Below are positions 36,239 through 54,521 of a stretch of 64,000 bases of DNA, in pieces. How positions within the stretch are numbered: the stretch's first letter is position 1; each line of letters starts with the position of its first letter. The stretch covers positions 31,468-95,467 of the forward strand of contig CAZGKW010000013.1 of the NCBI GenBank assembly GCA_964526295.1, in the 5' to 3' direction. Made by a program: the position numbers and the translations under genes. Source of the DNA: an uncultured Anaerolineales bacterium (GTDB taxonomy: Bacteria > Planctomycetota > Phycisphaerae > FEN-1346). Below the pieces are notes generated by a model that searched no databases, was not told where the DNA came from, and saw nothing but the letters and a program-made list of their open reading frames with translations.

Positions 36239-37276
36239 ATGTTCGAGGACAGAATGGTCGCGGTCGTCGTCCCGTGCTACAACGAGGAGACGCAGATCGA
36301 ACGGGTCCTGGCGACCATGCCGGACTTCGTCGACGCCATCATCGTCGTCGACGACGCCAGCCGCGACGCGAGTGGGGACGTCGTCCGACGCGCCATCGAC
36401 CGCGACGGGCCGGACGGACGGATCACTCTGGTCACGCACGATGTGAACCGCGGCGTCGGGGCCGCCATCGCCACCGGTTACAAGGAGGCCCTCCGGCGGG
36501 GCGTCGACGTGGCGGCCGTCATGGCCGGCGACGGCCAGATGGACCCCGGGGAGCTCGAGCTCCTCGTCGGGCCGGTGGCCCGAGGCGAGGCCGACTACGC
36601 CAAGGGCAACCGCCTCTTCTACCAGGGCGCCTGGGGCAACACCCCCAAGCATCGCTATATGGGCAACGCGTTCCTCTCGATGCTCACGAAGATCGCCAGC
36701 GGCTACTGGCACGTCGCCGACTCCCAGACCGGCTTCACGGCCATCAACCGCCGCGCCCTGGAGCTCGTGGACCTCGATCGGCTGTATCCCCGCTACGGGT
36801 ACCCGAACGATCTGCTGATCCGTCTGAACGTCTTCGACATGCGGGTCGCTGACGTCCACGTCCGGCCGGTCTACAACGTGGGAGAGTCCTCGAAGATGCG
36901 CCTGCGGCACGTCGTGCCGAAGCTCTCGTGGCTCATCCTGAAGCGGTTCGTCTGGCGCCTGAAACAGAAGTACGTGGTCCACGACTTCCATCCGCTGGTC
37001 CTCTTCTACGGGGCAGCGGGGTTCTTCACAGCGTCTTCCCTGGTGTTGTTCGTGCGGTTGATCTGGGTGTGGGCCGCCAAGGGCGACATCCCCGACATGA
37101 ACGCGCTCCTGTGGGCCATGTGCGTCATCACGTCGATCCAGCTCGGCCTGTTCGCCATGTGGTTCGACATGGAGATGAACCGCCACCTTCGCATCGTCAT
37201 CAACTCCCAGCCCCGGCCGGCCTGTCCGCTTCCCCCGGACGAGCTCCGCGAAGACGGCGGCGACGGAGAGGCATGA
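36239..37276 (+). CDS. GT2-family glycosyltransferase (DPM1/polyprenyl-phosphate sugar transferase-like) with C-terminal TM helices
   Basis: The N-terminal VVVPCYNEE...DDAS.D is a GT-A DxD fold. Two C-terminal TM helices are predicted. Confidence 0.75.
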   Translation: MFEDRMVAVVVPCYNEETQIERVLATMPDFVDAIIVVDDASRDASGDVVRRAIDRDGPDGRITLVTHDVNRGVGAAIATGYKEALRRGVDVAAVMAGDGQMDPGELELLVGPVARGEADYAKGNRLFYQGAWGNTPKHRYMGNAFLSMLTKIASGYWHVADSQTGFTAINRRALELVDLDRLYPRYGYPNDLLIRLNVFDMRVADVHVRPVYNVGESSKMRLRHVVPKLSWLILKRFVWRLKQKYVVHDFHPLVLFYGAAGFFTASSLVLFVRLIWVWAAKGDIPDMNALLWAMCVITSIQLGLFAMWFDMEMNRHLRIVINSQPRPACPLPPDELREDGGDGEA

Positions 37277-37365
37277 GCGCAAGCCGCGTGGAGCGGAGCG
37301 GGCGAAGGGACGCCTTGCCCGTGAGGAAACGACCCGCGACGTCGCCAAGAGGAAGCCTGATTCGC

Positions 37366-38148
37366 ATGGCAGCACCTCCGGACGGGTTCCAAAGACGCGC
37401 CATCATGGGAGGGCTTCCGCGTTCGGGGTCCAGCCTGATACGAAGCATTCTGAACGGCCATCCGCGGATTCTCGCGCCGCGGGAGACGGCGGTCTTTATC
37501 CACGACTTGGACGTACTCCGGTCGAAATCGCCCCGCATAGCACCGCGAATCGGTCGGCGGCTCGGGTTGCCGGCCGACCTCGTCTCGGAGCTGCTCGCGG
37601 AGGCGGGCTCGACCGTCGAGTTCTTCGACGAGTTGATGTTTGCGTGGCGCCGAACCACCGGGCGCTGGGACGCCGACGTGTGGCTTGAGAAGACACCCCG
37701 CAACTGCCGGCGCTGTGCCGCCATACGACGAGAGTGCCCCGACGCCGGGTTTATCTCGATCCTGCGGGACGGCCGCGACGTGGTCACCTCCGTCTTCCCG
37801 GGGAGGGAAGGCTATTACTGCAGCATCGACCGTTACGTCCGCGCGGTTCGCCAGATCATGGCGTTCGAGAACGACGCCCACCTCCTTGTCCGCTATGAGG
37901 CGTTCGTCGAATCGACGGAGGAGGTGCTCCGTGACATCACTAAGCACATCGGGGTTGAATGGTCCGACGAGATGATGGGATCTTGCCGCAGGCGGCCGGG
38001 GCTTTCGGGCAACCGGAAGGTCGAGGAACCCGTCACGGACCGCTGGGTCGGCCGATGGCGGCTGCCCGAGCACGCGGACCGCATCCGTGCCTTCTACGAG
38101 ACGCCGGAAGCCGTGGAGTGCCTCGCTCTGAGCGGTTACGAGCCGTGA
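37366..38148 (+). CDS. PAPS-dependent sulfotransferase
   Basis: It has a 5'-PSB loop (GLPRSGSS) and a 3'-PB-like region. An AGAGGAAG RBS sits upstream. Confidence 0.7.
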   Translation: MAAPPDGFQRRAIMGGLPRSGSSLIRSILNGHPRILAPRETAVFIHDLDVLRSKSPRIAPRIGRRLGLPADLVSELLAEAGSTVEFFDELMFAWRRTTGRWDADVWLEKTPRNCRRCAAIRRECPDAGFISILRDGRDVVTSVFPGREGYYCSIDRYVRAVRQIMAFENDAHLLVRYEAFVESTEEVLRDITKHIGVEWSDEMMGSCRRRPGLSGNRKVEEPVTDRWVGRWRLPEHADRIRAFYETPEAVECLALSGYEP

Positions 38149-38343: not shown

Positions 38344-39876
38344 GTGGATTTGAGCAAGATGATCTTCGTGACCGGCTTCGCCCGGGGCGGCACCACGTGG
38401 CTCCGCAACTGTATCGCCTCGCATCCGCAGGTCTCGAAGATCGACAAGGAGCTGGTGCTCTTCAAGCGGTTCGGCGGGGACCGCAACGCCATCGAGGCGG
38501 AGCTGGAAGCGTTCATCGCCGACAGGGGCCTGGAGGGGCCCTACTTCGTCGAGAAAGGGCCAGCCAACGCTCCCCACGTCGCCAAGGCGTGCCGGGCGCT
38601 GCCCGAGGCGAAGTTCCTTTTCATCATCCGGGACCCCCGCGACGTATTCATCTCGCACAAGCGGGGAAAGCGCAAATGGATGGGCGGAAGCAACAGCGAA
38701 GTCGCCGGATGCATGCGCAAAACCCGTCGGTACTATGAAGGCTACATCGAGGGACGGGAGCAGCCCAACCTCATGCTGGTCCGCTACGAGGACCTGCACC
38801 AGGACTTCGAGACGACGCTCGGCCGGGTGCTGGAGTTCGTCGGCCTCCGGGCCGACCCCGCCATCGTGGAGCAGGCCTACGAGGCGAACGCCTTTTCCCG
38901 GGTGACCGGCGGCCGCCGGAAGGAGGACCGCGACGCCGCCGTCCGCAAGGGCTGCGTCGGCGACTGGCAGACGTTCCTTTCCGACCGCGAAGCCGCTTGG
39001 CACCGGAAGCAGACATTCTGGCGGGATTTCATGGCCAAGCACGGGTACGGGTGGCGGAAGCTGACCTTCGAGTCGATCCTGCAGACCTTGGCGGAGGCGG
39101 GGGTTCGCTTTCTCTCGGAAGACGACATCCTGGCCGCGCGACTCGATACCGAGCGGCTGAACGTGTTCCTGTATCACGACATCGACAACCTGTCCAGCCG
39201 CGCTGCTCGGGAGAGCCTGCGGCGAACCGTCGAGATCGAGGCGACCCTCGGCGCTGCCTCCACGACATACTTCCTGCCGCTCGACGAGTGGCGGTACCGG
39301 GGGCTCTCCCCCGAGGGGGTGGCCAAGATCGCACGGGAGGTCCTCGGCGCCTCGCCGCGCCATGCCGTGGGGCTCCACCTGAACGCCGCGGAGCGGTTCT
39401 TTCCGCCCGAGGCGCCGGCGGCGGACGACACGCATCCCGACATGGCCAAGGCCATTGCCTATCTCCATGCCCAGATCGACGCGTACGAGGAGCGGGGGTT
39501 CCGCCTCCGCAGCGCCACGGCCCACGGCTACGGCCGCAAGAAGAAACGCCCCAACAATCGCGACAGCGACGTGTTCCCCGCCGAGCTGGCGAAACGCGAC
39601 ATCGTATTGCTGGATCACCATATTAAGCGCCGCATTGAGAAGGCGGCGTCGCACCGGGCACGCTTTCTCGATGTGGGAGGGCCCCTTTCGGCACGCCGGA
39701 TGCCGAACGCGGGACGCCTCGACGACCCGGAGACGTATCGCCGGTTCCCGCCGAAAAGCGTCCTGGTCTTCCAGACCCACCCGGGCAACTACGACGTAAC
39801 CCGCGGCCTTTGCCTCGGCCAGCGCCGAAACGTCCCGTTAGGCGAGACCGACACGGTCGAAGAGGCCGTCGAGTAG
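38344..39876 (+). CDS. Sulfotransferase domain fused to a C-terminal deacetylase-like domain. The second domain has two paralogues in this island.
   Basis: The N-terminal GFARGGTTWL (5'-PSB) and RDPRD (3'-PB) motifs are present. The C-terminal 250 aa share motifs (LYHDID.., TYFLPL, GLHLN) with the ORFs at 42381 and 49177. Confidence 0.65.
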   Translation: MDLSKMIFVTGFARGGTTWLRNCIASHPQVSKIDKELVLFKRFGGDRNAIEAELEAFIADRGLEGPYFVEKGPANAPHVAKACRALPEAKFLFIIRDPRDVFISHKRGKRKWMGGSNSEVAGCMRKTRRYYEGYIEGREQPNLMLVRYEDLHQDFETTLGRVLEFVGLRADPAIVEQAYEANAFSRVTGGRRKEDRDAAVRKGCVGDWQTFLSDREAAWHRKQTFWRDFMAKHGYGWRKLTFESILQTLAEAGVRFLSEDDILAARLDTERLNVFLYHDIDNLSSRAARESLRRTVEIEATLGAASTTYFLPLDEWRYRGLSPEGVAKIAREVLGASPRHAVGLHLNAAERFFPPEAPAADDTHPDMAKAIAYLHAQIDAYEERGFRLRSATAHGYGRKKKRPNNRDSDVFPAELAKRDIVLLDHHIKRRIEKAASHRARFLDVGGPLSARRMPNAGRLDDPETYRRFPPKSVLVFQTHPGNYDVTRGLCLGQRRNVPLGETDTVEEAVE

Positions 39877-39884
39877 GACCGCTC

Positions 39885-40643
39885 ATGGACGACGACCAGG
39901 TTACGCGGCTGTATCGGGGCGAGATCATGACCCCCGGGGCCCAGCGCCGCTGCCGCGAGCGCATCGCCTGGATCACCGAGCGGGCGTCGGGGCCCCGAGT
40001 TCTGGACGTGGGATGCAGCCAGGGGGTCGTCTCGATTCTGCTGGCCCGCCGGGGGCTGGAGTGCCTGGGGGTGGACATCGCCGAGCCGCAGATACGCTTT
40101 GCTAGGCGGGCGTTGGCCGACGAATCGCCGGCGGTCCGCAAACGCATCCGCTTCGAGCTGGCCGACGTCCGGCGGGTTGACTGCGGCCCGTTCGACACCA
40201 TTATCCTGGGCGAGGTCCTGGAGCATGACGATGACCCCGAGGAACTGTTGGCGGTGGTCAAGGACCTGGTGCGGCCGGAGGGCAATGTGATCATCACCGT
40301 GCCTTACGGCCATCAGCCGTCCGTTGATCACAAGCGGTCGTACTACCTGGCGGACTTCCACGACCTGGTGCGGAAGCCGTTTCGGATTCGAGAGTTGGGG
40401 CTGCTCAACCGCAACATCGTGTGCCTGGCTTCGCCGGGAGACCCGGAGCCACGCCCCGCCCTGGGCAAGCGGCACGTGGCCCAGGTGGAGCGGATCGTGG
40501 CCGAACTGGAGCAGGAGGTCCAGCGGATCAAGGGGCGCCTGAAGGCCGCGGCAGAGCCGGTGCAGAAGCCGGGCGGCGCGGCTCAACTCGCGCGGAGGCT
40601 GCTCCGGAAAGTCCGGGGGCGGCATACCGGCAAGGCCCCATAG
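39885..40643 (+). CDS. Class I SAM-dependent methyltransferase
   Basis: It has the VLDVGCSQG glycine-rich SAM motif and the ILGEVLEH motif (Methyltransf_11/23-like). Confidence 0.75.
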   Translation: MDDDQVTRLYRGEIMTPGAQRRCRERIAWITERASGPRVLDVGCSQGVVSILLARRGLECLGVDIAEPQIRFARRALADESPAVRKRIRFELADVRRVDCGPFDTIILGEVLEHDDDPEELLAVVKDLVRPEGNVIITVPYGHQPSVDHKRSYYLADFHDLVRKPFRIRELGLLNRNIVCLASPGDPEPRPALGKRHVAQVERIVAELEQEVQRIKGRLKAAAEPVQKPGGAAQLARRLLRKVRGRHTGKAP

Positions 40644-40676: not shown

Positions 40677-41504
40677 ATGAGCGCCAACGGCGATACCAAC
40701 GAGGTGCCGGACATCGACGAGCGATTCCAGAGCCTTGTCGAGGAAGACCGGCAAAGCTACGGCGAGCCGGGGGTGATCCTGGTCCGTAGCCGGCTGGAGG
40801 AGGGACGCTGTCTCGACGCGTGTCGCAAGAAGGTGGAGGACTGGATCGCCTGGCACGGGGCGCCGTATCCAGCGGACCGGCATGCCGAGTACATGTACGT
40901 CCCGTCGCGATCGGACAGGAAGGTCCTGCTCTCGGCGGTCCTCGTGCTGCCGGGCACGTTCGAAGATTACCGGTCGTGGTTCTCCCGCAAGCGGCGCTCC
41001 AACGCGATGGGGCGGAAAGCGGCTAACTTGGGCTACAAGACCAGCCCCTTTCGACCCCGGGACTACGCCGAGCAGATCTACCGCATCATACATTCCAGGC
41101 CCGAGCGTCAGGGGCGAGAGGTCGAAGCCGCCTTCTGGGACAGGCCCCCGGACGAGCCATTTGATCGGTACGAACCTATCGGATGCCCTCGACACGAGAA
41201 CCTGGCGTGGGGGGTATTCACGCCGGAAGGGGGCTTAGCCGCCTATCTGCTGGGCATGCGGGTGGGGGACGTCCTGTTCTACGAGGAAATCATGGGCCAT
41301 GCGGACCATCTCGACAACGACGTCATGTACCTGCTGCACGCCGAGCTGGTCGGCCACTGCATCGGTCTTCGCGAACCGCCCGAATTCCTCCACTACGGCC
41401 CCTGGTACAGCGGGAGGGACCCATTCAATCCTCGGGGAGGCCTGAATCGATGGAAGCGAAAGGTCCGGATGCGGCCGGCGTATCTCGTGCTTGCGTCCTC
41501 CTAG
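40677..41504 (+). CDS. Hypothetical protein in the glycan island. No confident family assignment.
   Basis: It is a 275-aa ORF co-directional with the island and has good codon bias. No motif was recognised. Confidence 0.4.
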   Translation: MSANGDTNEVPDIDERFQSLVEEDRQSYGEPGVILVRSRLEEGRCLDACRKKVEDWIAWHGAPYPADRHAEYMYVPSRSDRKVLLSAVLVLPGTFEDYRSWFSRKRRSNAMGRKAANLGYKTSPFRPRDYAEQIYRIIHSRPERQGREVEAAFWDRPPDEPFDRYEPIGCPRHENLAWGVFTPEGGLAAYLLGMRVGDVLFYEEIMGHADHLDNDVMYLLHAELVGHCIGLREPPEFLHYGPWYSGRDPFNPRGGLNRWKRKVRMRPAYLVLASS

Positions 41505-42391
41505 GCGGCCAACCGCGGTCCGGCACGACCCTGCTGGCCAGCATCCTCGGCAGCGCCCCGGGCCACGTTCAGGCCTACGAGCTGCACGTTCGAAAGCCCA
41601 GCTTCGTCGTCGGCCTGGAGGGCCGATATACCCGGAACCTGCTGACCGAGCTTGGCCTCCCCCCGGAAACCTACGACCGGATCGTCGCGGGCTGGGACAC
41701 CGACCGCATGAACCTGGGGGCCTGGGCCGGACCGGTCGAAGAGCACAGCGCCGAGCCACTGACCGGCGCCGAGACCGACCGGTTCGAGGAAGAGCTGGCG
41801 GCCCGGTGCGAGCTCATCGAAGCCCTCATGGAGGCCCTCTGCAGGCACTTGGGCGGCCGATCCTGGGGGATCAAGATCCTGGCCGACATCGCGTTCGCCG
41901 ACAGATACGCCAAGGCGTGGCCCGCCGCCCGCGTCATCCACGCCGTCCGCGACCCCCGGGACCAGGCGCTGTCGGTCCTCCGGCTGAACGAACAGCGCCA
42001 CGAGCGGGGCCAGCCTCCGTTTTACGAATCGGTGCGCGAGGCCGCCGAAGGGTGGCGGCGGAACCTCCTGGCCGGGCGCGAGGCCGTCCGCCGGGCCGGC
42101 CTGACCGCGGTAGAGGTCCGGTACGAAGAGCTGGCTCGGCGTCCCGAGACCATCCTGCGGGTCCTCGAAGGGCGGCTCGGCCTGGAGGGGCTGGTCGCCT
42201 CCGCCGGGGAGTTCCACCGCTCGGCCGTCGTTCAAAGGCACGCCCGCCGGTTCCGGCATCACGACAACGTCCTCCGACCGATCAACACCTCCCGGATTGG
42301 AAACTGGCGGACCGCCATGGCGCCCGACGACCGGGCCGCCGTGGCCGAAATCTGCGGAGACCTCATGGCGGAGCTGGGCTATGAGCCGTAA
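41450..42391 (+). CDS. PAPS-dependent sulfotransferase
   Basis: It has the GQPRSGTTLL 5'-PSB loop and the RDPRD 3'-PB motif. A GGAGG RBS lies before the ATG. It overlaps the upstream ORF by ~55 nt. Confidence 0.7.
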   Translation: MEAKGPDAAGVSRACVLLGGQPRSGTTLLASILGSAPGHVQAYELHVRKPSFVVGLEGRYTRNLLTELGLPPETYDRIVAGWDTDRMNLGAWAGPVEEHSAEPLTGAETDRFEEELAARCELIEALMEALCRHLGGRSWGIKILADIAFADRYAKAWPAARVIHAVRDPRDQALSVLRLNEQRHERGQPPFYESVREAAEGWRRNLLAGREAVRRAGLTAVEVRYEELARRPETILRVLEGRLGLEGLVASAGEFHRSAVVQRHARRFRHHDNVLRPINTSRIGNWRTAMAPDDRAAVAEICGDLMAELGYEP

Positions 42392-43343
42392 CGACGCCGC
42401 GACGGAACTGTGGTCGCCGGAAATGCTGATCGAGGCGTTGACGGCAGCCGGCGCCGAGACCCCGGCCATCCAGCCGGTCTGCGCCGTCGACCGGGCGCTG
42501 GCCGAACGCCGCGCCGTCTGGTTCCTGAAGCACGACGTCCACGCTGTGCCGCTGGAGGACATCCGGGAGCTGGCCCAGGCCGAGGCGGCCAGAGACCTCC
42601 ATGCGACCTACTTCTTCCTGGTCCCCGGGCACCCGGCATCGTCCGAAGCGTACGGCACGGAGGAGCTCCTGGAGACGTGCCGGGTGCTGATTGCCCTGGA
42701 CCACGAGGTGGGCCTGCATCTGGACCCCTATTTCCTGATCGAATGGCGCGCCCAGCCTCTCCGGGAAACCATCGCCGAGGCCGCCGAGACGTTCCGCTCG
42801 GCCGGGATCCCCCTCTGGACCGCCAATACCCACGGCAACACGGCCTACCGCTACACCGACCAGGACGGGTTCGGGATTTTCTTCGAGGTGTACGAGGAGC
42901 TGGCCCGGCAGCCGGACTACCCCACTCTGGCCGGGGTGGACGCGGTGCGGCGGGAGGTGATCCGGCGCCATCGGTTCGGCGTCCGCGACTTGGGATTCCG
43001 ATGGTGGGGCGACGTGCCGCTCTGGTCCGCGGCCCGCGGGTTCGCCGTGATGCACTACGTCTCCGACAACCCGCTGGATCGGAGAGGCACGTGGGATCAC
43101 ACGATTTTCGCGGAGGCGAAGGGACGGTACAAGCTCTCGGACCGTCAGCCGCCCGGTGCTCGTACGCGTGCCGAGGCGCGGGACTTCGTCCTTTGCAAAA
43201 ACGGGTGGCCGGGAGCTTTCGAGGAGGGTCCCGCCCGGTTCGAGGTGGACCCCCGGAGTCCGGCCCACGCCGACGCGATGCGTCGGCTGGCCTCGGGGCC
43301 GGCCCAGTTCTTGCTCCATCCCCAGTTTTATGGCACGATGTAG
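42381..43343 (+). CDS. Deacetylase-like domain protein. It is paralogous to the C-terminal domain of the 38344 ORF and to the 49177 ORF.
   Basis: It shares blocks FLKHDVH / TYFFL / VGLHLD with the two other copies. Confidence 0.5.
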   Translation: MSRNDAATELWSPEMLIEALTAAGAETPAIQPVCAVDRALAERRAVWFLKHDVHAVPLEDIRELAQAEAARDLHATYFFLVPGHPASSEAYGTEELLETCRVLIALDHEVGLHLDPYFLIEWRAQPLRETIAEAAETFRSAGIPLWTANTHGNTAYRYTDQDGFGIFFEVYEELARQPDYPTLAGVDAVRREVIRRHRFGVRDLGFRWWGDVPLWSAARGFAVMHYVSDNPLDRRGTWDHTIFAEAKGRYKLSDRQPPGARTRAEARDFVLCKNGWPGAFEEGPARFEVDPRSPAHADAMRRLASGPAQFLLHPQFYGTM

Positions 43344-45328: not shown

Positions 45329-46675
45329 ATGAACAAAGTCGCCATGGTCGTCCTGAACAACGTCACCCGCGACCCGCGGGTGATGAAGGAGTCCGCCGCG
45401 TTGGCCCGGGCCGGTTACGCGGTTCACGCCGTGGGCCTGGCCGAGGATTCGGAGCGCGACATCCCCGTCGAGGCCGCCGAAGGCGTCACCATCCACCGAT
45501 ACGTCAAGCCGACGGCGTCCTCCCGGCGTTTCACCGGTCGGCACCTGGCGGCCTTGTCGATCGTTGGGCTCCTGGCCGTGGGAGGCGCCGTGACGCTGGC
45601 GGTCGTCTGGGATCAGGAATCGGTCATCCGTGTCGTGAAGGTGGTGATCACATCGCTGGGGACGGGGGGCGCAGCCGTCCTGGCGATCCGGCACCGGCGC
45701 GCCCTGGTCCGGCTGCTTCGGCCGTTCACCGTGGCGTTGCGACTCCGCCGATTCCGGCGTTTTGCCGAGCGGACCTTGGCCGAGATCGACCCGGAGATCG
45801 TCCATTGCCACGACCTGCTGGCCCTTCCGGTCGGCGTCCGCTACGCACGGAAGCGGCCGCGCGTCAAAGTGGTCTACGACAGCCACGAGATCTTCGAGGA
45901 CCAGTCCCTGCTGGCGGCATGGGAGTCGCGGTTCTATCGACGGCTCCAGGCCCGCTATACAGAAGACCTCGACGGCTTCATCACGGTCAACGGTTCGATC
46001 GCCTCGCTGCTGAAAGAGCGGTACCCGAAGCTGCCCGAGCCGACCGTCATCATGAACGCGGCGGAGTACGACGGCGAGAATGTCGCCTACGACGGCTGTC
46101 TGCACGACGCCGCGGGGCTGCCCCCCGAAACGCGGATTCTGCTCTACCACGGGGGCTACGCCAGGTTCCGAGGCCTGATGACGCTGGTTCGCGCCGGGCA
46201 CCATTTGCCCGGAGGGTGGGCGATCGTCCTGATGGGACGCGGCCCGCTGGAGCCGCAGCTCCGCCGGACCGTGGACGAGGAAAACCTCTCCAACGTCTTC
46301 CTGGTCAAGCCGGTGCCCCGGGACGATCTGCTGTACTGGACGGCGGGAGCCGAGGTGGGCGTCATCGCCTACGAGAACGTCAGCCTCAACCACTGGTACT
46401 GCAGCCCCAACAAGCTGTGGGAGTACCCCGCGGCCGGGGTGCCGATCCTGGCCGGCCCGCTGGCGGTCGTGAGGGAGATGGTTGAGGAAAACGGCATCGG
46501 CTGGGTCGTGTCCGACCCGGTGACGTCGCATGCAATCGCCTCACGGATCGAGTCCCTGACGGAAGAGGAAATCGAGCGGAAACGTCGCGCCTGCCTGGAG
46601 TTCATCCAGCGGGACAACTGGGCGGTCTACGAGAAGCGCCTCCTACGGCTGTACCAGGAACTCACGGGCCTGTAG
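45329..46675 (+). CDS. GT4-family (GT-B) glycosyltransferase
   Basis: It has the C-terminal EX7E-like GT4 motif region (KLWEYPAAGVPIL). A GAGGTGA RBS is present. Confidence 0.75.
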   Translation: MNKVAMVVLNNVTRDPRVMKESAALARAGYAVHAVGLAEDSERDIPVEAAEGVTIHRYVKPTASSRRFTGRHLAALSIVGLLAVGGAVTLAVVWDQESVIRVVKVVITSLGTGGAAVLAIRHRRALVRLLRPFTVALRLRRFRRFAERTLAEIDPEIVHCHDLLALPVGVRYARKRPRVKVVYDSHEIFEDQSLLAAWESRFYRRLQARYTEDLDGFITVNGSIASLLKERYPKLPEPTVIMNAAEYDGENVAYDGCLHDAAGLPPETRILLYHGGYARFRGLMTLVRAGHHLPGGWAIVLMGRGPLEPQLRRTVDEENLSNVFLVKPVPRDDLLYWTAGAEVGVIAYENVSLNHWYCSPNKLWEYPAAGVPILAGPLAVVREMVEENGIGWVVSDPVTSHAIASRIESLTEEEIERKRRACLEFIQRDNWAVYEKRLLRLYQELTGL

Positions 46676-47046: not shown

Positions 47047-49104
47047 ATGCAGGCAAAGCGACTTCTGCTGCCGGTCCTGGCCGGGCTCGCCGTCCTGGGC
47101 GGCGCGGTCTGGGCCATCCGCGAGTTGCACGAGGAGGCAGTGGAACAGAGCCGAGAGGCGGCGTCCAAGGTACCTCGGCTCGACTTGGCCGAGCTCACGC
47201 CAGCGTGGCTGGTCCACCACGTCGAGCTACCCCCGGAGGCCGTGCCAAGCCCACAGACGGCCGAGCCGTCTCCGGACCCCCGGAGCCGGCGGATCGCGGC
47301 CTGGCTTCTCGGCCGACCGCCCATCGCCGGCCTGCCGGTCAAGTTTTGTGGACACCGGCAGGCTCTGGCCAACTACCGAAAGGGCGTGATCCAGTTCCGC
47401 GAATTCCCACCGATCCCTTGGCGAGCACCGGTAGATTGGACGGAGGGCCCGAGCTGGACGTTCCTGGCCGAGCTCCACTCCTGGCGGTACCTGACCCCCG
47501 TAATCAACGAGTACGCCCGGACGGGTGATCCGCAACTCCTGAAGGACGTGGTCGACATCGTGCTGGACTGGTCCCGATCGAACCCCCCGCCCGAAGGCGC
47601 CCATCGCAGGGCTTGGCACGACGGATCCGTGGTCAAGCGGACCGGCGTCCTGCTGATCCTGCTGAACGCCTATCGGCAACAAGGGGCGTCCCCCCGCCTG
47701 CCCGTCCAGGCGCTGATGGCGCTGATCCATCAGCACGCCCGGGCCGTGGCCAGCCCGGAGCGATACATGGGACTGGGCAACCACGGCCTGCGCCAGGACA
47801 TGTCCCTCTACTTCGTGGCCACGGGGGTGCCCGAGTTCAAAGCGTCCCCCGGGTGGAGAAGACTTGCCGAGGAGCGTCTCCGGCGACAGATCCGCGAAGG
47901 ATTCACCGCCGAAGGGGTCTGGCGCGAGCACTCTCCCGGCTACCACGTCTACGTCATGCTGCGGCTGCACGACTTGACCCGTTTCATGCAGGCCCTCGGC
48001 ATCGACGAGCCCGAGTGGCTGCGTCAGCACGTCCTGCGGTCGCAGCACTACCTGGCACACGTGATGACGCCCGAGGGCAACCTGCCGCCGGTCGGCGACA
48101 CCAATCTCAAGCCCCTCCCGGACGCCTATCCGATACGGCTGCCGGCGCTGCGGTATACCGTCACAGGCGGCCGGGAAGGCCGGCCGCCGTCCGAGCGCGT
48201 AGGCTTCTTTCCGGGCGCCGGCGAGGTGACGTTTCGCCGCACCTGGGGCCCCACGCCGGCCGACGTTCGCGACTCGCTCTACCTCCATCTGCACGCCGAC
48301 TCCCCCGGCCGCTTCGGCCATCGCCACGAGGACGCCCTCTCGTTCATCCTCTACGCCCACGGTAACTGGTGGGTAATCGACCCCGGCAAGTACCGGCCTC
48401 GGAAGGACGCCTTCCGCGAGTATGTGGTCGGCCAATGGGCCCACAATACCTACGTTCTGAACGAAAAGCCCGTCCACCCCCGAGTGCCGCTGGACAAGGG
48501 TGTTGGGATAGAGGGAGAGCCTGTGGTCCGCGACGATCTCCTGGCGGTGGCAGCCTTCTCCGGGCGTTTCTCCTCCCCCGCCCAAGCCACGCGGGTCCTG
48601 GCGTACCTGCCGGGGGAAGACACGCTCGTCGTGCTGGACGTTCTGCGGGCCGAGCCCGGCGACCGCTGGACAGGCCACTTCCACGTGGCCCCCGAACTGA
48701 AGACCGAGGTCCGCGGCCACTGCGTGACGGCTTCCGCCGACGACCGGGCCTGGATGCTGGACGTCGCCGACTCCCGGCAGGAGAACGACCGGCTCGAGAT
48801 CGTCCGCGGCAGAGAGGACCCCCTACTCGGTTGGGCCTATCGCAGGGGCCGCGGCAGGCGTCCCCTGTCAACGCTCCAGTACCGGAGATCGGGCCACCGG
48901 CGGGAGGTGGCCACCGTGTTCCGCTGGCGCCGTCCCGACGCCGGTCCCACGGAAGGCATGTCCGTCCTGCGGCAGGGCAACGGGTACCTTGTCCGATGGC
49001 ACGCGGACGGACAGAAGCACGAAATCCGCTTCGATCTGGCGGACGGCCTGCGCGTCACTCAGCGCGAAGCGGGCTTGACGAACCCCGGGCCCTCCGTACC
49101 ATAG
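47047..49104 (+). CDS. Heparinase II/III-fold protein with an N-terminal signal/anchor. It is either a polysaccharide lyase or a uronyl C5-epimerase-like enzyme.
   Basis: It has the N-terminal hydrophobic MQAKRLLLPVLAGLAVLGGAVWA segment. The Hepar_II_III-like block is YLHLHADSPGRFGHRHEDALSF. The (alpha/alpha)-toroid portion is about 690 aa. Confidence 0.6.
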   Translation: MQAKRLLLPVLAGLAVLGGAVWAIRELHEEAVEQSREAASKVPRLDLAELTPAWLVHHVELPPEAVPSPQTAEPSPDPRSRRIAAWLLGRPPIAGLPVKFCGHRQALANYRKGVIQFREFPPIPWRAPVDWTEGPSWTFLAELHSWRYLTPVINEYARTGDPQLLKDVVDIVLDWSRSNPPPEGAHRRAWHDGSVVKRTGVLLILLNAYRQQGASPRLPVQALMALIHQHARAVASPERYMGLGNHGLRQDMSLYFVATGVPEFKASPGWRRLAEERLRRQIREGFTAEGVWREHSPGYHVYVMLRLHDLTRFMQALGIDEPEWLRQHVLRSQHYLAHVMTPEGNLPPVGDTNLKPLPDAYPIRLPALRYTVTGGREGRPPSERVGFFPGAGEVTFRRTWGPTPADVRDSLYLHLHADSPGRFGHRHEDALSFILYAHGNWWVIDPGKYRPRKDAFREYVVGQWAHNTYVLNEKPVHPRVPLDKGVGIEGEPVVRDDLLAVAAFSGRFSSPAQATRVLAYLPGEDTLVVLDVLRAEPGDRWTGHFHVAPELKTEVRGHCVTASADDRAWMLDVADSRQENDRLEIVRGREDPLLGWAYRRGRGRRPLSTLQYRRSGHRREVATVFRWRRPDAGPTEGMSVLRQGNGYLVRWHADGQKHEIRFDLADGLRVTQREAGLTNPGPSVP

Positions 49105-49176: not shown

Positions 49177-50079
49177 ATGGCCTATCGCTTCGCGGAGTAT
49201 CTGATGTTACTCGATGCCGTGGCGGAGGCCGGCATACCCACCCGGACCGTCAGGGAGTGGGGGCCGCCCGGCCTCTACATCCTCCACGACGTCCACTCAC
49301 AGATCGAACCGTGCCGCGCGTTTGCCCGGGAGGAGGCACGCCGGGGCGTCCGGACGAGTTTCTTCTTCCTCCCGGAGTCGCGGTACAATCGCGAGTGGTT
49401 CGGGACGAGCCAGATGTTCGATGTCCTGGCCGACCTCCGCGACGCCGGAGCGGAACTGGGCTTTCACATCGACCCGTTCGAACTGGACATCCTGTACGGC
49501 CGTTTCGACTTCCTCTACCGGCCCGTCTATCGCCGCGTCCGGGAGTGGAAGGCATACTTCCACCGGCGGGGTTTCCCGATGGCCGTTGCGAATCTGCACG
49601 GCTCGACGAAGCATCGTCGGTCGGGCATGGTGGCGTCGGACTTCTTCCGAGAGACGCAGCGGGACCGGAACGTGATCCGGGGGTGCGACCCCTCACGCTT
49701 CCATCCTCACTTTGGGCGGTATAGGCTCCGCAGGCTCCCGTTTGACCGAACCGTCGTCCTCTCAATGGTTTACGAGCAGCGGGCACGGCGGCTCACCCAC
49801 CCGGACTACTATCTCAGCGACAACAGCAAACGCATCGTGCTCCACAAGATCGATCCGGAGAGGGAACTCAGCCTCCTCCTGACGGATTTTCACGCCAACG
49901 TGGAGCACCTCCGCCGGACCGGCCGCTACGAGGAGCTCCGGCGTCACGTGGAGCTGGAAGGCGACCTCTGGTCGCTCGATGCGGACCTGATAGCCGAGCT
50001 GGTCCGCCGGATCGACGGTCGCCGCGTCCTGGCCCTGATCCATCCGCAGTGGTTCCACGGGGCCGAAGATGAAGTCTAA
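49177..50079 (+). CDS. Deacetylase-like domain protein, the third paralogue
   Basis: The blocks YILHDVHS / SFFFLPE / LGFHIDP align with the other two copies. Confidence 0.5.
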   Translation: MAYRFAEYLMLLDAVAEAGIPTRTVREWGPPGLYILHDVHSQIEPCRAFAREEARRGVRTSFFFLPESRYNREWFGTSQMFDVLADLRDAGAELGFHIDPFELDILYGRFDFLYRPVYRRVREWKAYFHRRGFPMAVANLHGSTKHRRSGMVASDFFRETQRDRNVIRGCDPSRFHPHFGRYRLRRLPFDRTVVLSMVYEQRARRLTHPDYYLSDNSKRIVLHKIDPERELSLLLTDFHANVEHLRRTGRYEELRRHVELEGDLWSLDADLIAELVRRIDGRRVLALIHPQWFHGAEDEV

Positions 50080-51226
50080 GCCTCAGAAGACGCGACGCTC
50101 TTCGCGGCGGGCCCGCCGGGTGGCACACGTCTGCGTGGTCCACGCCGCCGGCGACGCCCGCATCTTCCTGAAGGAGTGCCGGACGCTCGCCGCACAGGGG
50201 TACGACGTCCACCTGGTGGCGCCGGAGCCCGGACCCGAGGCGCCGGGCGAGGTCGCGTTTCACCCGGTCCGGCGGGCACGTCCGCGGGTCGCCAGCGTCG
50301 TGGCGAGTCTGGCGGACGCGTTCCGGCAGGTGACCTGCATCCGGCCGGACGTCGTCCACCTGCACGAGCCGGTCCTGCTGCCCCTCGGCCTGATGGCGAA
50401 GGCGGCCGGAGCGGCCACCGTGATCTACGACGCCCACGAGGACGCGCCTCGCCAGGCGCGGTCGGTCGGACGCAATCAGAACCGCCCGGTCTATGGATGG
50501 GCCCTCTCGGTCGCCTACGCCGCCCTGGTGTCCACGGCCCGTTTCTTGGACGGCTTCGTGTGCGCGACGCCGGCCATCGCCGCCCGGTTTCCGGCCGGTC
50601 GGCGGGTGGTGGTCCGCAACTTCCCGCAGCGCCGGGAGTTCGCCTCCGCGGCCCAGGTCCCCTACGCCGACCGCCCGGCCCGGGTGATCTACGCGGGCGG
50701 CATCTCACGGACCCGCGGCATCCGCGAGGTGGTCCTGGCGGCCGAGCGTCTGTCTTCTGCTCTCGGGGCCCGGTTCAGGCTGGCGGGGCGGTTCGCCCCG
50801 GCGGCGCTGCGCCGCGAAGTCGAGGCCCTGCCCGGGTGGGACCGCACGGACTTCCTGGGCTGGTTGAGCCGCGAAGACCTTGCGGCCGAGCTGGGCCGGG
50901 CACGCGTCGGCCTGCTGCCGTTCCATCCCCAGCCGAACCACGTCCGGGCCTTGCCCGCGAAGCTCTTCGAGTACATGGCGGCGGGGCTGCCGGTCGTCGC
51001 GTCGGACTTCCCGCTCTGGCGGCGCCTCGTGGAGGGGCACGGGTGCGGCGTATGTGTCGATCCGCTCGACCCGGAGGCCATCGCCGGGGCGGTCCGGCAT
51101 CTGCTGGAGCAACCGGCCGAGGCCGAAGCCATGGGCAGCCGGGGCAGCGACGCCGTTAAGCACCGATACAACTGGGACCGCGAGGCAGGGCGTCTGCTGG
51201 AGCTGTACCGCCGGCTCGGGGGGTGA
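50069..51226 (+). CDS. GT4-family (GT-B) glycosyltransferase
   Basis: It has GT4 C-terminal motifs (GLLPF..., KLFEYMAAGLPVVASD). Confidence 0.75.
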   Translation: MKSKPQKTRRSSRRARRVAHVCVVHAAGDARIFLKECRTLAAQGYDVHLVAPEPGPEAPGEVAFHPVRRARPRVASVVASLADAFRQVTCIRPDVVHLHEPVLLPLGLMAKAAGAATVIYDAHEDAPRQARSVGRNQNRPVYGWALSVAYAALVSTARFLDGFVCATPAIAARFPAGRRVVVRNFPQRREFASAAQVPYADRPARVIYAGGISRTRGIREVVLAAERLSSALGARFRLAGRFAPAALRREVEALPGWDRTDFLGWLSREDLAAELGRARVGLLPFHPQPNHVRALPAKLFEYMAAGLPVVASDFPLWRRLVEGHGCGVCVDPLDPEAIAGAVRHLLEQPAEAEAMGSRGSDAVKHRYNWDREAGRLLELYRRLGG

Positions 51227-51290
51227 GCGTCGCATGGGGCTCGCCCCCGGGGCCCGGCCGGGGTGCAGCAAGGCCGTCCGGGAGGTCGGG

Positions 51291-52232
51291 ATGCTCTCGA
51301 GAGCCAGGATGGGCCGCTTTCTTCGCCGCCTTGGCGGAGCGGCCCTCTTCGCCCTGGTCCTCGTGTTCGTCGGACGGGAGTTCGTGCGGCGCCTCGCCGA
51401 CTTCGACTGGCAGGCGGCATCGTTTGCGCCCGGCTACGCGGCCGCGGCGGCGGCGGCCCTGCTGGCGGCCAACGCCCTCCTCGGCGTGCCCTACCGACAC
51501 CTCGTGGCGCGGCTTTCCAGGCGCCTGCCGCTCGCCTTCGTCAGTGCCGTCGCATGGGTCAGCCAGACGGGCAAGTACGTACCCGGCAAGGTGCCGAGCG
51601 TGGCGACGCTGGTATGGCTGCTCTACCGACGGGGCGTGCCGCGGCGGGCGGGCCTGACGGCGGCGGTGATGGTCGCCGCCCTGTGGGTCGGGCTGGCGCT
51701 GATCATGGCGGCGCCGCTGGGCCTGTGGGAGCCGGTCCGGGAGCGGGTGCCGCCGGCGTGGCTATGGGGAGCGGCGGCAGCGGCAGCCGGCCTGGCGGGG
51801 CTGCACCCGAGGGTCCTCGGCCCGGTCGCCAGCGCCGTCCTCAGGCGGCTGGGGCGAGACCCCCTCGGGCCCCTGCCCCGGGTCCGCGACTACGCCCTTC
51901 CGGCCGCCGCCCTCGCCCTGTACCTGGGGCTGAACGGCGTCGCGCTCTGGCTCGTGGCGCGGGCCGTGACGGACGTGCCGGTCGGCCTGCTCGGGCTGTT
52001 CATCGGGGCGACGGCCCTGGCGTACGCGGCGGGGTTCCTGTCGCTGTTCGCCCCGGCCGGGATCGGCGTCCGCGAGGGCGTCCTGCTGCTCGTCCTCGGC
52101 CTCGTCCTGCCGCGGGGGGTCGACGCGGCGGCCGTGACGGCCGTCCGGCTCCTGACGATCCTGGTGGAAGTCGGGCTGGCGGGGGTCGGCCTGGCGCTGC
52201 TTCGACGGGGACGGCCTGACGCCTCGACTTGA
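51291..52232 (+). CDS. Polytopic membrane protein of the flippase-like / lysyl-PG-synthase TM-domain (UPF0104) type
   Basis: It has about 8 TM helices and is Ala/Leu-rich. A GGAGG RBS is present. This family is commonly found next to GT genes. Confidence 0.5.
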   Translation: MLSRARMGRFLRRLGGAALFALVLVFVGREFVRRLADFDWQAASFAPGYAAAAAAALLAANALLGVPYRHLVARLSRRLPLAFVSAVAWVSQTGKYVPGKVPSVATLVWLLYRRGVPRRAGLTAAVMVAALWVGLALIMAAPLGLWEPVRERVPPAWLWGAAAAAAGLAGLHPRVLGPVASAVLRRLGRDPLGPLPRVRDYALPAAALALYLGLNGVALWLVARAVTDVPVGLLGLFIGATALAYAAGFLSLFAPAGIGVREGVLLLVLGLVLPRGVDAAAVTAVRLLTILVEVGLAGVGLALLRRGRPDAST

Positions 52233-52337
52233 TGCATTTCCGCCGGGAACCCGCCCGTTCGGCGCGGTTTAACGAAACATCACAGGAGGGATTCGTCCCG
52301 CCAGGTCGTCCGCCCGAACTCGTAGGATGGCAAGACT

Positions 52338-54521
52338 ATGAAGCATGTGGCGATTGTGTGGGCCTGTACGGTCCTGGCCGCAGCTACCGCAGACGCCGAC
52401 GTCCGGATCGAGGTCGTCCCGCCCTTCGTCCGCATCGGCCCGAAGGCCGCCGCCGACATGGGCCCCGCCGCGTCCAAGGTGATCGACCTGCGTGCCCCGC
52501 GTAACGGCATCGCCTCGGCCCAGGTGGTCGTCCGCGCGGAGGAGCCGTTCAGCGGGCCCTCGGCCTCGGCGAGCGATCTCACGGGCGAGACGGGCGGCCG
52601 CATCCCGGCCGAGGCCGTCCGCCTCCGCTACGGCCGCCTCGGAGGCGCCTATGTGCCCCTGCTGGACGAGCCCGCCTCCGGCGAAGCCCTCCACATGGTG
52701 TGGCTGACGGTCCGCGTGCCGGAAGACGCCCGGCCCGGGGCATACCGCGGGAAGCTTGACCTCCGCGGACCGTTCGGCTCGCGGACCGTGCCGATCGAGC
52801 TCCGGGTCCATGCCTGGCGCGTCGGCGATCCGCACCAGTGGCGGACCTGGGTCAACCTGCTCCAGTCGCCCGAGTCGGTGGCGGCCCACTACAAGGTGCC
52901 GCGGTGGTCCGACAGGCACTTCCGCCTGATGGAGAAGTCGCTGGCCCTGATGGGGGCGGCGGGCAACGACGTGCTGGGCATCTCGGCCGTCCGCGAGACC
53001 GTCTTCGGCGACGACCCGATGCTCGTCTTCCGCCGCACCGGCGACCGATGGGTCCCTGAGTTCGACCTCGTCGAGCGATACCTCGGCCTCTACGACCGCC
53101 ACGCCGGCGAGCCGGCCTACCTGGCCCTCCACGTGTGGTCCTACGGGATGTACTACAGGGGGGAGGGCCGCGACGGCGGCAAGGAGCAGGTCCGGGCCGA
53201 GACGATCCCCGTCCTGGAGCGCCGCGGCGGCGAACTCGTGCCGGTCGAGATGCCCATCTTCGGAGGGCCCGGCACGGGGCCCGTCTGGCGGGCCGTCGTC
53301 GAGGGCCTCAAGGCCCGCTTCGAGCGGCTCGGCTGGACGCGGACGCGGCTCCTGCTGGGGACAGGCGGCGACACATGGCCCTCGCCCGAGACGGTCGGCT
53401 TCTTCCAGACGATCGCCCCGGACGTCCGGTGGCGTGTCCTGACGCACGGCTGCGGGTGCCCCAAGTGGGGACCGACCCCCCTGGAGCGGACCCAGCCGAA
53501 CGGCATGGTCGTCGGGTACCTGGAGATCGCCCGGCGCCTCACGAACCACCGCGACCGGCTGCCCGGCCGCCCCGTCGTCTGCAACAGCCGCGACCGCGTC
53601 GGCTCGGACCCCTTCGCCTACCGCGGCCTGGCGAGCGTGACGGTCTTCGGCCACGGCTACGAGGGCATCTGCTGGAAGGGCATCGACTACTGGACCTACA
53701 CGACGCCGGAGGGCACCCGCCGCAACGCCCTCAACACGTACGTCCACTTCGGCAACATGGTGGGCGGGACGCCGCGGGCCATGTGCGCCCCCGGCCCCGA
53801 CGGGGCGGTCACCACGCAGCAGTTCGAACAGCTCCGCGAGGGGCTCCAGGAGTGCGAGGCCATGCTCGCCATCCGGGCCGGCCTGGACCGCCTGTACCCC
53901 CAGCCGGTCACCCGCTGCGACGTGCTGCAACTCGTGCTCAAGGACGCCCTCGCCCGGGAGGACCGGCGGCGAAAGGCCGAGGGCGAGTTCGTCGACGTGC
54001 AGGACCTGGAACTGTCGCTCCGGTTCCGCGATGGGGAGTTGCTGCCCGAGGTCCGCTCGAAGGCGTCGACCTACAACACGGGCCGCCACACCGCACGGGC
54101 GAAGGCCCTGCCCTCCAGCGACAGCCTGCGGCTCGAAGTCGAGGTGACCATCGCCGACGACCCATGGATTGCCGGCGGCACCGGCACCTTCGTTCTGGAC
54201 CTGGAGCGGGGCAATCCGTCCTGCACGGGACGCTTCGAGGGCGCCTTCAACGGCCACGAGCGGGAGGGGCCGGTCATCGGGACGTTCGTGCCGAACGGGT
54301 ACGCCGTGCCCACAGGCGAACCCCGGCCGGGGACGGAGGCCGTCGCCCGCGCCGAGGCCGTCATCGAAACGGCCGTCGGCGTGGTGAAGACCCGCAAGCC
54401 CGATTCGCGGACGACGGAGGCGTGGCCGGAAGCGTTGGACCGACTCTACGAGGAAGCGGCGGCCATCGAGGCGAGCGCCGCGGCGACCCAGGTGAGTGCG
54501 GACCCCCGCGCGGCGAAGTGA
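52338..54521 (+). CDS. Secreted 727-aa protein of unknown function. It is a possible glycan-processing enzyme.
   Basis: It has a cleavable-type signal peptide (MKHVAIVWACTVLAAATADA). It is large and globular and is the last gene of the island. Confidence 0.4.
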   Translation: MKHVAIVWACTVLAAATADADVRIEVVPPFVRIGPKAAADMGPAASKVIDLRAPRNGIASAQVVVRAEEPFSGPSASASDLTGETGGRIPAEAVRLRYGRLGGAYVPLLDEPASGEALHMVWLTVRVPEDARPGAYRGKLDLRGPFGSRTVPIELRVHAWRVGDPHQWRTWVNLLQSPESVAAHYKVPRWSDRHFRLMEKSLALMGAAGNDVLGISAVRETVFGDDPMLVFRRTGDRWVPEFDLVERYLGLYDRHAGEPAYLALHVWSYGMYYRGEGRDGGKEQVRAETIPVLERRGGELVPVEMPIFGGPGTGPVWRAVVEGLKARFERLGWTRTRLLLGTGGDTWPSPETVGFFQTIAPDVRWRVLTHGCGCPKWGPTPLERTQPNGMVVGYLEIARRLTNHRDRLPGRPVVCNSRDRVGSDPFAYRGLASVTVFGHGYEGICWKGIDYWTYTTPEGTRRNALNTYVHFGNMVGGTPRAMCAPGPDGAVTTQQFEQLREGLQECEAMLAIRAGLDRLYPQPVTRCDVLQLVLKDALAREDRRRKAEGEFVDVQDLELSLRFRDGELLPEVRSKASTYNTGRHTARAKALPSSDSLRLEVEVTIADDPWIAGGTGTFVLDLERGNPSCTGRFEGAFNGHEREGPVIGTFVPNGYAVPTGEPRPGTEAVARAEAVIETAVGVVKTRKPDSRTTEAWPEALDRLYEEAAAIEASAAATQVSADPRAAK

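Follow-up and report, generated by a model that had tools for sequence, protein, structure and literature searches.

We have analysed a 64,000-nucleotide stretch of contig CAZGKW010000013.1 (below, the window), in which positions 36239-54521 carry a real operon-like set of 14 genes, all on the + strand, probably for a sulfated surface sugar polymer. Because the G+C content of the window is ~70%, raw lists of open reading frames (ORFs) are swamped by spurious frames, and genes were called by frame analysis of third-position GC (GC3), together with the frame plot and inspection of start codons. A preliminary description had counted 16 co-directional genes in this island; its boundaries and the shared direction hold, and the count is corrected to 14. 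Separate gene calls on an identical metagenome contig (L006) yield the same products as the GC3 analysis, namely proteins of 291, 510, 252, 275, 313, 320, 610, 448, 685, 300, 385 and 313 aa and, last, a truncated gene. The G+C content is 66-69% over most of the island against ~72% in the flanks, and the gene junctions are mostly overlaps or gaps of <110 bp, the largest gap (371 bp) lying ahead of g10. The gene content bears out the description of a sulfotransferase-rich island for glycan biosynthesis and modification, and is as follows.

g1, 36239..37276, + strand: family 2 glycosyltransferase (GT2) of the DPM1/ArnC/PpgS/AglJ type, polyprenyl-phosphate sugar synthase-like (PF00535, 1.9e-23).
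g2, 37273..38148, + strand: stand-alone sulfotransferase of the type using 3'-phosphoadenosine 5'-phosphosulfate (PAPS) (PF13469, 3e-23).
g3, 38344..39876, + strand: predicted bifunctional protein, sulfotransferase plus CE4-fold deacetylase-like domain (PF13469/PF00685 and structural model).
g4, 39885..40643, + strand: class I S-adenosylmethionine (SAM)-dependent methyltransferase (PF13489, 2.5e-17, and related models).
g5, 40677..41504, + strand: tandem-GNAT, Fem/MprF-synthase-like acyl- or aminoacyl-transferase (from structural neighbours; no Pfam model).
g6, 41450..42391, + strand: stand-alone PAPS-type sulfotransferase, member of a g7-g5-g6 triad (PF13469, 2.2e-20).
g7, 42381..43343, + strand: free-standing CE4-like (X) protein, cytoplasmic (BLASTP to g11, 6e-13; hhalign to the g3 C-terminal domain).
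g8, 43392..45224, + strand: ABC half-transporter homologue with a transmembrane (TM) and a nucleotide-binding-domain (NBD)-like part (PF00664, 6e-4, below cut-off).
g9, 45329..46675, + strand: long family 4 glycosyltransferase (GT4) with a TM hairpin inserted in its N-terminal domain (GT4 and GT1 Pfam domains).
g10, 47047..49104, + strand: PL12 heparinase-III-like protein with an N-terminal signal or anchor (PF16889, 8.5e-21; PF07940, 8.1e-17).
g11, 49177..50079, + strand: the other free-standing paralogue of the CE4-like X domain; its end overlaps the first bases of g12 (BLASTP to g7, 6e-13).
g12, 50069..51226, + strand: GT4 (PF13692, 6.8e-19; PF00534, 1.3e-18).
g13, 51291..52232, + strand: polytopic membrane protein with an MprF-type flippase-like TM domain (PF03706, LPG_synthase_TM, 6.2e-10, above cut-off).
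g14, 52338..54521, + strand: secreted GH123-like protein of the beta-N-acetylgalactosaminidase family (PF22680, 7.5e-8; PF13320, 1.2e-7).

The three sulfotransferases g2, g3 and g6, which had been recognised earlier, match PF13469/PF00685 above threshold and carry readable 5'-phosphosulfate-binding (5'-PSB) motifs (PRSGSS, ARGGTT and PRSGTT, respectively) as well as 3'-phosphate-binding (3'-PB) motifs (RDGRD..S in g2, RDPRD..S in g3 and g6). By sequence, all three are closest among solved structures to TPST1/2, with TPST or SULT being nearest, and NCBIfam models detect weak NoeE similarity in g2 and g6. The proposal that one sulfotransferase is fused to a deacetylase-like domain is borne out by the structural model of g3, in which a sulfotransferase domain (residues ~1-230) is followed by a C-terminal half with a predicted deacetylase fold (residues ~236-497, counted from the ATG at 38359; with the annotated start, a GTG at 38344, the protein is 5 residues longer). 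The pTM of the two-domain model is 0.90, which indicates a fixed arrangement between the domains. A Foldseek search of the PDB with g3 returned sulfotransferase-domain matches only, and in the structure comparison its sulfotransferase domain ranks TPST and SULT above N-deacetylase/N-sulfotransferase (NDST) and 3-OST. The domain lies nearer to TPST/SULT than to NDST or the heparan sulfate O-sulfotransferases, which does not support the heparan-sulfate-like pathway proposed earlier.

The C-terminal domain of g3, which we designate X, is modelled as the distorted (beta/alpha)7-8 barrel of the CE4/NodB-homology fold. Its structural neighbours are CE4 polysaccharide deacetylases (IcaB 11.7, WbmS 11.3, PgaB 11.1, ArnD 8.8), along with many peptidoglycan and chitin deacetylases; the three best, IcaB, WbmS and PgaB, belong to polysaccharide pathways as N-deacetylases or putative deacetylases. 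At the sequence level no Pfam or NCBIfam model recognises X, a profile of the family matches no CE4 structure in the PDB, and the canonical CE4 motifs (TFDD, H(S/T)xxH, RxPY, DxxDW, LxH) have partial analogues only. The two free-standing paralogues announced in the preliminary description are g7 and g11, which find each other by BLASTP (6e-13); the profile of their family aligns with the g3 C-terminal domain with an hhalign probability of 97.3% (E 2.2e-11), and a hidden Markov model of the latter matches g7 and g11 in register, g11 at 3.6e-4.

Residue conservation within X argues for catalysis, as judged from the model. The invariant polar residues of the g3 domain (H273, D274, D276, H340, E345, H389, D438, H474) all map to the C-terminal ends of successive beta-strands of the modelled barrel, and these barrel-end residues are strictly kept in ~80 g3 homologues and in the g7/g11 family. 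In g7 the invariant residues are H51, D52, H54, H113, D115, H151, D229 and H313, and g11 has every invariant residue of the g7/g11 family alignment. The g7/g11 motif series reads H-D-x-H, G-L-H-L-D, H-G, S-D-N, L-x-H-P, and the motifs common to both families are H-D-x-(D/H), G-L-H-L-(N/D), H-G and L-x-H-P. Since the invariant residues cluster at the strand ends and the motifs are shared across families, the X domain probably holds a conserved active site.

A profile search with X over 1.84 billion cluster representatives (at 50% identity) retrieved 3592 proteins at E<=1e-3, of which 654 reach E<=1e-10. Among the multidomain members sampled, X is fused to a sulfotransferase both in the g3 order (P0222) and in the reverse order (P0329, a borderline PF13469 match of 26.4 bits against the 27-bit cut-off); further partners are a SAM methyltransferase (P0192), a hexapeptide acyltransferase (P0249) and TPR repeats. 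That X repeatedly has a group-transfer enzyme as its partner speaks for a role in which it would free a group, most simply an amine, for the partner to modify. An NDST-like logic of deacetylation followed by sulfation is plausible for g3. In addition, many members of 550-1100 aa have no recognisable partner domain. In the literature we found no natural bacterial enzyme of the g3 kind, joining a sulfotransferase to a deacetylase fold; as far as could be found, this fusion and its syntenic partners are undescribed, and they are experimentally tractable.

Full-length homologues of g3 number ~95 (38-90% identity) and are nearly all metagenomic. Among GTDB species representatives they occur only in metagenome-assembled genomes (MAGs), whose hosts are Phycisphaerae/Phycisphaerales, Isosphaeraceae, Acidobacteriota, Gammaproteobacteria, a 'delta proteobacterium', Rhodobiaceae and Phaeomarinobacter. 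Synteny was counted in 14 loci carrying a g3 homologue, with partners taken within 10 kb. The most constant partner is a full-length g9-like long GT4 (34-44% identity), present in 11 of the 14 loci and immediately upstream of the g3 homologue in several (L002, L010-L012, L015); a g10-like PL12 protein accompanies g3 in half of the loci (7/14), and a full-length g8-like protein in 6/14, with partial matches in L011 and L012. A second conserved unit is the triad of a deacetylase-like protein, a Fem-like tandem GNAT and a sulfotransferase (g7-g5-g6), which is syntenic in L013, L078, L079 and L080 and, judged by gene sizes and order, also in L081 (Desulfovibrio sp. JC010). In the Isosphaeraceae MAG (L013) the g6 homologue, 51% identical, adjoins those of g5 and g7, and in L015 a g2 homologue (46% identical) lies near that of g3. 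Clearly, the arrangement is far beyond chance: the synteny of the core g9-g3-g8-g10 and of the triad recurs in MAGs of several phyla and spans Planctomycetota, Acidobacteriota, Proteobacteria, Desulfovibrio and Euzebya.

In the related loci the gene for the sulfotransferase-X protein is often duplicated in tandem, methyltransferases recur, and some loci have radical SAM/SPASM genes and a Fem-like enzyme. A UDP-GlcNAc 2-epimerase (ManNAc route) occurs in 5/8 annotated related neighbourhoods and is absent from the window, and no UDP-sugar dehydrogenase was found in nine annotated neighbourhoods (the eight related loci and L006, the window's own island). Two further proteins absent from the window recur elsewhere, one of ~510-520 aa without a Pfam match next to the g3 homologue (L001, L078, L079, L080) and one of 860-900 aa with hexapeptide repeats (L001, L079, L080). 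Cultured carriers of parts of the system are Desulfovibrio sp. JC010 and Euzebya pacifica (L082). Both have deacetylase-like, sulfotransferase and long-GT4 genes and are open to experiment; of the two, Desulfovibrio alone yielded a g5 homologue. The neighbours of the module in Euzebya pacifica are a Wzm/Wzt ABC transporter and initiating transferases of the WecA-like and Bac_transf kinds, which places the module in a surface-polysaccharide pathway.

The conserved partners of g3 agree in part with what had been assigned to them. The GT2 and the two GT4 enzymes expected earlier are g1, g9 and g12 by their Pfam domains. The TM hairpin of g9 spans residues 70-88 and 97-115; g12 shares 28% identity with g9 and otherwise resembles generic exopolysaccharide (EPS) GT4s only. 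The ABC-like exporter is a mixed case. The g8 protein has about six TM helices, and a six-helix TM domain (TMD) precedes an NBD as in type IV ABC exporters; alone it has no PDB match, and a six-sequence profile of its family matches Sav1866 (4.5e-7, residues 118-544) and MsbA (1.9e-6) across TMD and NBD. The homology thus stands over both domains, but Walker A, the LSGGQ signature and Walker B are all missing from g8, and the family consensus is degenerate at all three, so that g8 appears from its sequence to be an ATPase-dead ABC homologue. This MsbA/Sav1866-type family without ATPase motifs is nevertheless syntenic with the sulfotransferase-deacetylase fusion (L002, L008-L010, L015, L080).

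The heparinase II/III-fold protein is g10, with both Hepar_II_III_N and Hepar_II_III_C domains and a match to heparinase III (4mmh) at 7.7e-15. In the alignment, N240/Y294/H424 of Pedobacter heparinase III, which we take to be the catalytic residues, correspond to an Asn (GNHG), a Tyr (SPxYH) and a His (GHRH) of g10. All seven syntenic g10 homologues share the Asn and Tyr; six of them also keep the His motif (as KHKH in L017), which is shifted in L079. The NCBIfam HepC model (NF045573) scores 57 bits against a cut-off of 700, and g10 does not reach equivalog level. Retention of the lyase-aligned residues, together with a hydrophobic segment at residues 3-24 as N-terminal signal or anchor, speaks against the C5-epimerase role considered in the preliminary description, and g10 looks like an exported lyase by these sequence features. 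Most EPS operons carry a lyase for their own polymer; a literature search on heparinase-II/III proteins in biosynthetic loci gave nothing useful. The last gene, g14, was absent from the preliminary description; it has a hydrophobic segment at residues 4-22 and is weakly GH123-like overall, matching GH123 structures 5l7v (3.3e-7) and 5fqe (1e-3).

Also missing earlier was g5, in which a tandem GNAT fold like that of FemX, FemA and MprF synthase domains was confirmed. Its top structural neighbour is an aminoacyl-tRNA-dependent peptide synthase, the acyl-CoA-using tandem GNATs MshD and MAB_4324 are also among the structural matches, and neither the FemAB nor the DUF2156 model of Pfam matches. The genes with which g5 stays syntenic, for a sulfotransferase and a deacetylase-like protein, suggest a sugar amine as its acceptor rather than a phospholipid. 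The flippase-like membrane protein proposed before is g13, with multiple TM segments and the LPG_synthase_TM domain (alternative start at 51234; 313 aa in L006); in a Rhodobiaceae MAG, too, a protein with PF03706 is encoded close to the g3 homologue. In g1, two C-terminal TM helices (254-277, 289-307) follow the GT2 domain, and NCBIfam models place it closest to PpgS (1e-15) and AglJ (9.5e-14), every score being well short of the equivalog cut-off. The SAM methyltransferase is g4, as Pfam indicates; it has no specific NCBIfam equivalog, and Pfam/NCBIfam scans detect weak NodS similarity in the island.

We lean, by a little, towards the view that the enzymes of the island make and decorate a sulfated cell-surface glycan that contains amino sugars. 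What was observed is the gene content, the folds and fusions, the conservation of synteny and the topology as predicted; from these we infer substrate identity, N- versus O-sulfation, the order of steps and the export route. The retaining GT4s, g9 (membrane-anchored and a conserved partner) and g12, would assemble an N-acetyl-hexosamine-containing chain at the cytoplasmic membrane face. On this chain the CE4-fold domain of cytoplasmic g3 would strip acetyl and its sulfotransferase domain would add sulfate from PAPS, the most likely product being an N-sulfo-hexosamine, as in NDST. The module g7, g5 and g6 may re-derivatise other residues by deacetylation, then N-acylation or aminoacylation, then sulfation, and further marks would come from g2 (sulfate), g4 (methyl) and g11 (deacetylation). 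For export, g8, the ABC homologue without ATPase motifs, may serve as membrane partner or conduit. Signal or TM segments are present in g10 and g14 and are missing from the sulfotransferases, the X-domain proteins, the methyltransferase and the GNAT, which suggests cytoplasmic PAPS-dependent modification followed by extracytoplasmic processing. Outside the cytoplasm, PL12-like g10 and GH123-like g14 would trim, release or, less likely, epimerise the polymer. In alginate, Pel and poly-N-acetylglucosamine (PNAG) systems, indeed, lyases or hydrolases trim or release their own polymer. Finally, g1 and g13 probably supply and flip a polyprenyl-phosphate sugar for extracytoplasmic side decoration.

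Several points weigh against this scheme. The sulfotransferases are closest to protein-tyrosine and small-molecule sulfotransferases, and the acceptor is not deducible from sequence. The X domain of g3, g7 and g11 does not match PF01522 at all, and CE4-fold enzymes also include O-deacetylases and pseudoenzymes. As g8 cannot hydrolyse ATP by itself, its export role is speculative. Neither PAPS genes nor nucleotide-sugar genes are among the island genes of the window; cysDN/cysC are missing from the window genes scanned, a search limited to the window. The island likewise has no initiating phosphoglycosyl transferase and no Wzx/Wzy or Wzm/Wzt, and none of Wzx, Wzy, Wza and Wzc was found among its 14 genes or in the flanks. 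Moreover, g1, g4, g11, g12, g13 and g14 are not conserved with the core, and their roles are for this reason the least secure.

Known systems offer partial parallels. In PNAG (PgaB/IcaB), Pel (PelA/PelF) and alginate (AlgL/AlgG) synthesis there is, with PelF, a precedent for a GT4 polymerase, the CE4-fold deacetylases are those closest to X, and the operons encode a polymer-specific lyase or hydrolase acting outside the cytoplasm; these systems, however, deacetylate in the periplasm or extracellularly and do not sulfate, whereas the deacetylase-like proteins of the island are predicted to be cytoplasmic and coupled to sulfotransferases. The PL12 heparinases III of Pedobacter heparinus and Bacteroides thetaiotaomicron share with g10 both Pfam domains and the conserved Asn/Tyr/His, but g10 falls far under the HepC threshold and is encoded in a biosynthetic rather than a catabolic locus. 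As to MprF and Fem enzymes, g5 has the tandem-GNAT fold of FemX/FemA/MprF synthases and g13 the flippase-type TM domain of MprF, though here they are separate, non-adjacent genes.

The closest parallel in logic is NDST, with whose pair of activities heparan sulfate modification begins in animals. Like NDST1-4, g3 joins a PAPS-dependent sulfotransferase fold, with 5'-PSB and 3'-PB motifs as in NDST, to a (beta/alpha)7 deacetylase fold in one polypeptide, and the implied order is to deacetylate and then sulfate the same glycan. NDST1 itself combines a (beta/alpha)7 metal-dependent deacetylase of the Agd3-like type with a PAPS sulfotransferase in the Golgi lumen (PMC10864358). The architecture of the NDST lineage (N-terminal domain, deacetylase, C-terminal sulfotransferase, type II anchor) is not that of g3, in which the domain order is reversed, with the sulfotransferase preceding the deacetylase, and which has neither the N-terminal domain nor a membrane anchor or TM segment; g3 is cytoplasmic by prediction where NDST is Golgi-luminal, and its deacetylase is of the PgaB/IcaB/WbmS-type CE4 kind instead of Agd3/CE18-type. 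N-sulfated glycosaminoglycan (GAG)-like exopolymers have been measured chemically in bacteria of the Planctomycetes-Verrucomicrobia-Chlamydiae group (Pontiella) and in anammox and granular-sludge EPS, and the genes have not been assigned, the 'pathways [being] not well known' (PMC7356697, PMC10483923). We put forward tentatively, as a possibility that we still hold to be doubtful, that the g3 family is a natural prokaryotic N-deacetylase/N-sulfotransferase, of an origin independent of animal NDST and with fusions in either domain order, which together with GT4, pseudo-ABC and PL12-like partners makes such N-sulfated GAG-like exopolymers.

Other readings account for parts of these data. The preliminary description saw the enzyme logic of heparan sulfate synthesis in the island; what survives is the coupling of deacetylase and sulfotransferase in one protein (g3), whereas the heparan-like backbone and the epimerisation are not supported. 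A heparosan-like GlcNAc-GlcA backbone that g3 would N-deacetylate and N-sulfate, g10 C5-epimerise, and g2 and g6 O-sulfate is accordingly given a low probability by us. PL12 enzymes act on GlcNAc/GlcNS-alpha1,4-GlcA linkages, and a PL12 heparinase-III-like protein is conserved with g3; two retaining GT4 and one inverting GT2 could formally alternate alpha and beta linkages, and the fusion in g3 mirrors NDST (PMC10864358). Yet the heparosan synthesis set (an alpha-GlcNAc transferase of GT45/GT64 plus a beta-GlcA transferase, either a KfiC/PmHS GT2 or a GT47) is not in the island, which has two GT4 and a DPM1/PpgS-like GT2 instead, the latter (g1) not conserved with the core; the nine neighbourhoods have no UDP-glucose dehydrogenase, UDP-GlcNAc 2-epimerase recurring in its place; the sulfotransferase domain of g3 is closer to TPST/SULT; g10 keeps its lyase residues and is predicted to be extracytoplasmic; and a Fem-like GNAT and a methyltransferase are foreign to heparan sulfate logic. 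More credible, while still unlikely in our estimate, is an O-sulfated polysaccharide of the synechan kind, in which the CE4-like domains would be O-deacetylases, binding modules or pseudoenzymes and the three sulfotransferases would make sulfate esters, with no N-sulfation. The known bacterial glycan sulfotransferases (NodH, NoeE, LpsS and those of synechan) are established as O-sulfotransferases (synechan: PMC8205485), g2 and g6 are weakly NoeE-like, and the xss system of Synechocystis PCC 6803 (PMC8205485) resembles the island in its several PAPS-type sulfotransferases with glycosyltransferases and possibly in regulation of the two-component type. Synechan, on the other hand, relies on a Wzx/Wzy pathway and O-sulfation, and the island, without Wzx, Wzy, Wza and Wzc, has deacetylase-fold partners, an ATPase-dead ABC homologue and a PL12-like protein. 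The strict retention of the polar barrel-end residues argues for catalysis by X, its repeated independent fusions (to sulfotransferases in both orders, a methyltransferase and an acyltransferase) suggest that a freed group is handed on, and its nearest structures are the polysaccharide-pathway deacetylases named above.

A product smaller than a polymer, such as an oligosaccharide resembling Nod factors or an amino sugar on a polyprenyl or lipid carrier, which would undergo deacetylation, acylation, methylation and sulfation before being flipped, appears improbable to us, although the enzyme set parallels NodB, NodA, NodS, NodH and NoeE. Both routes would combine cytoplasmic freeing of an amine by a CE4 fold with acylation or methylation and PAPS-dependent sulfation, weak NodS and NoeE matches exist, g5 and g13 jointly resemble the two halves of MprF, and the island of the window has no polymerase or long-chain export machinery. 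Against this reading, there is no NodC-like processive GT2 or chitin-oligosaccharide synthase; the X family is distinct and misses PF01522, the acyltransferase is a Fem-like tandem GNAT and not NodA, and g1 and g13 are not conserved with the core, whose conserved partners (a long GT4, a PL12-like fold) indicate a polymer, as does the Wzm/Wzt or Wzy-type machinery in Euzebya and L002. Very improbable, finally, is a RaxST-like pathway in which TPST-like sulfotransferases modify tyrosines of a peptide or protein, with the Fem-like enzyme and the ABC homologue serving in its maturation and export. TPST1/2 are the nearest solved relatives of all three sulfotransferases, radical SAM/SPASM and Fem-like genes occur in some related loci, and the top structural neighbour of g5 is a peptide synthase; but TPST-likeness is probably typical of bacterial PF13469 members generally, there is neither a precursor peptide nor a protease nor a functional ABC ATPase, and the partners are glycosyltransferases, CE4-fold, PL12-like and GH123-like proteins, UDP-GlcNAc 2-epimerase and WecA-like enzymes. 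This pathway was rejected, as was a catabolic polysaccharide utilisation locus for the heparinase and GH123 genes, the partners being biosynthetic and syntenic across phyla.

The surroundings of the island comprise a divergent two-component pair directly upstream:

34705-36240, - strand: GAF-histidine kinase (PF02518, PF01590).
34275-34823, - strand: response regulator (PF00072).

From their position, these two are possible regulators of the island. Beyond them the upstream genes are of unrelated metabolism, and the downstream genes are unrelated and on the opposite strand. A PMT/ArnT-like GT-C membrane glycosyltransferase (24563-26818, +), adjoined by a methyltransferase-domain protein (23211-25220, +), lies ~10 kb upstream and could in principle use a polyprenyl-phosphate sugar made by g1, with unrelated genes intervening between it and the island. 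In a single 799-aa ORF (31856-34255, -), acetate kinase and a PduL-type phosphotransacylase (PTAC) are joined to a cNMP-binding domain; this would be an Ack-Pta fusion that senses cyclic nucleotides. Directly downstream of the island a 549-aa protein has a C-terminal pRiA4b ORF-3-like domain (54585-56234, -), and at 58747-63950 (+) operon-like genes for YukD-type ubiquitin-fold, ThiF/E1-like, JAB/MPN peptidase, FHA/YscD-like and Prok-RING_1 proteins look like a prokaryotic ubiquitin-like conjugation system. Positions 1-19416 hold Wood-Ljungdahl genes (acetyl-CoA synthase/carbon monoxide dehydrogenase beta and delta subunits, RACo, methyltransferase), along with a 1083-aa fusion of NuoF-like and GltD-like parts, a molybdopterin formate-dehydrogenase-like subunit, MoeA and the NrfA/NrfH nitrite reductase. 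This gene content points to a high-GC anaerobe as host, and the nearest homologues are mostly from Phycisphaerae.

Bacterial sulfated glycans have seldom been linked to genes, and the island points to a conserved module of several phyla whose signature is a sulfotransferase fused to a deacetylase-fold domain. New are the X-domain family, the ATPase-dead ABC family and the deacetylase-GNAT-sulfotransferase triad, and even if sulfation proves to be O-linked, the triad, the ABC family and the X-domain family with its ~3600 representatives are new and testable. Heparin bioengineering currently builds artificial NDST for the deacetylation and sulfation step (PMC13353177), and g3 would, if the proposed activity is true, be a soluble enzyme, expressible in bacteria, of relevance to bioengineered heparin. 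Should g3 prove to put N-sulfate on a hexosamine, it would become the first analogue of NDST from a prokaryote and a concrete marker gene for producers of sulfated EPS in metagenomes.

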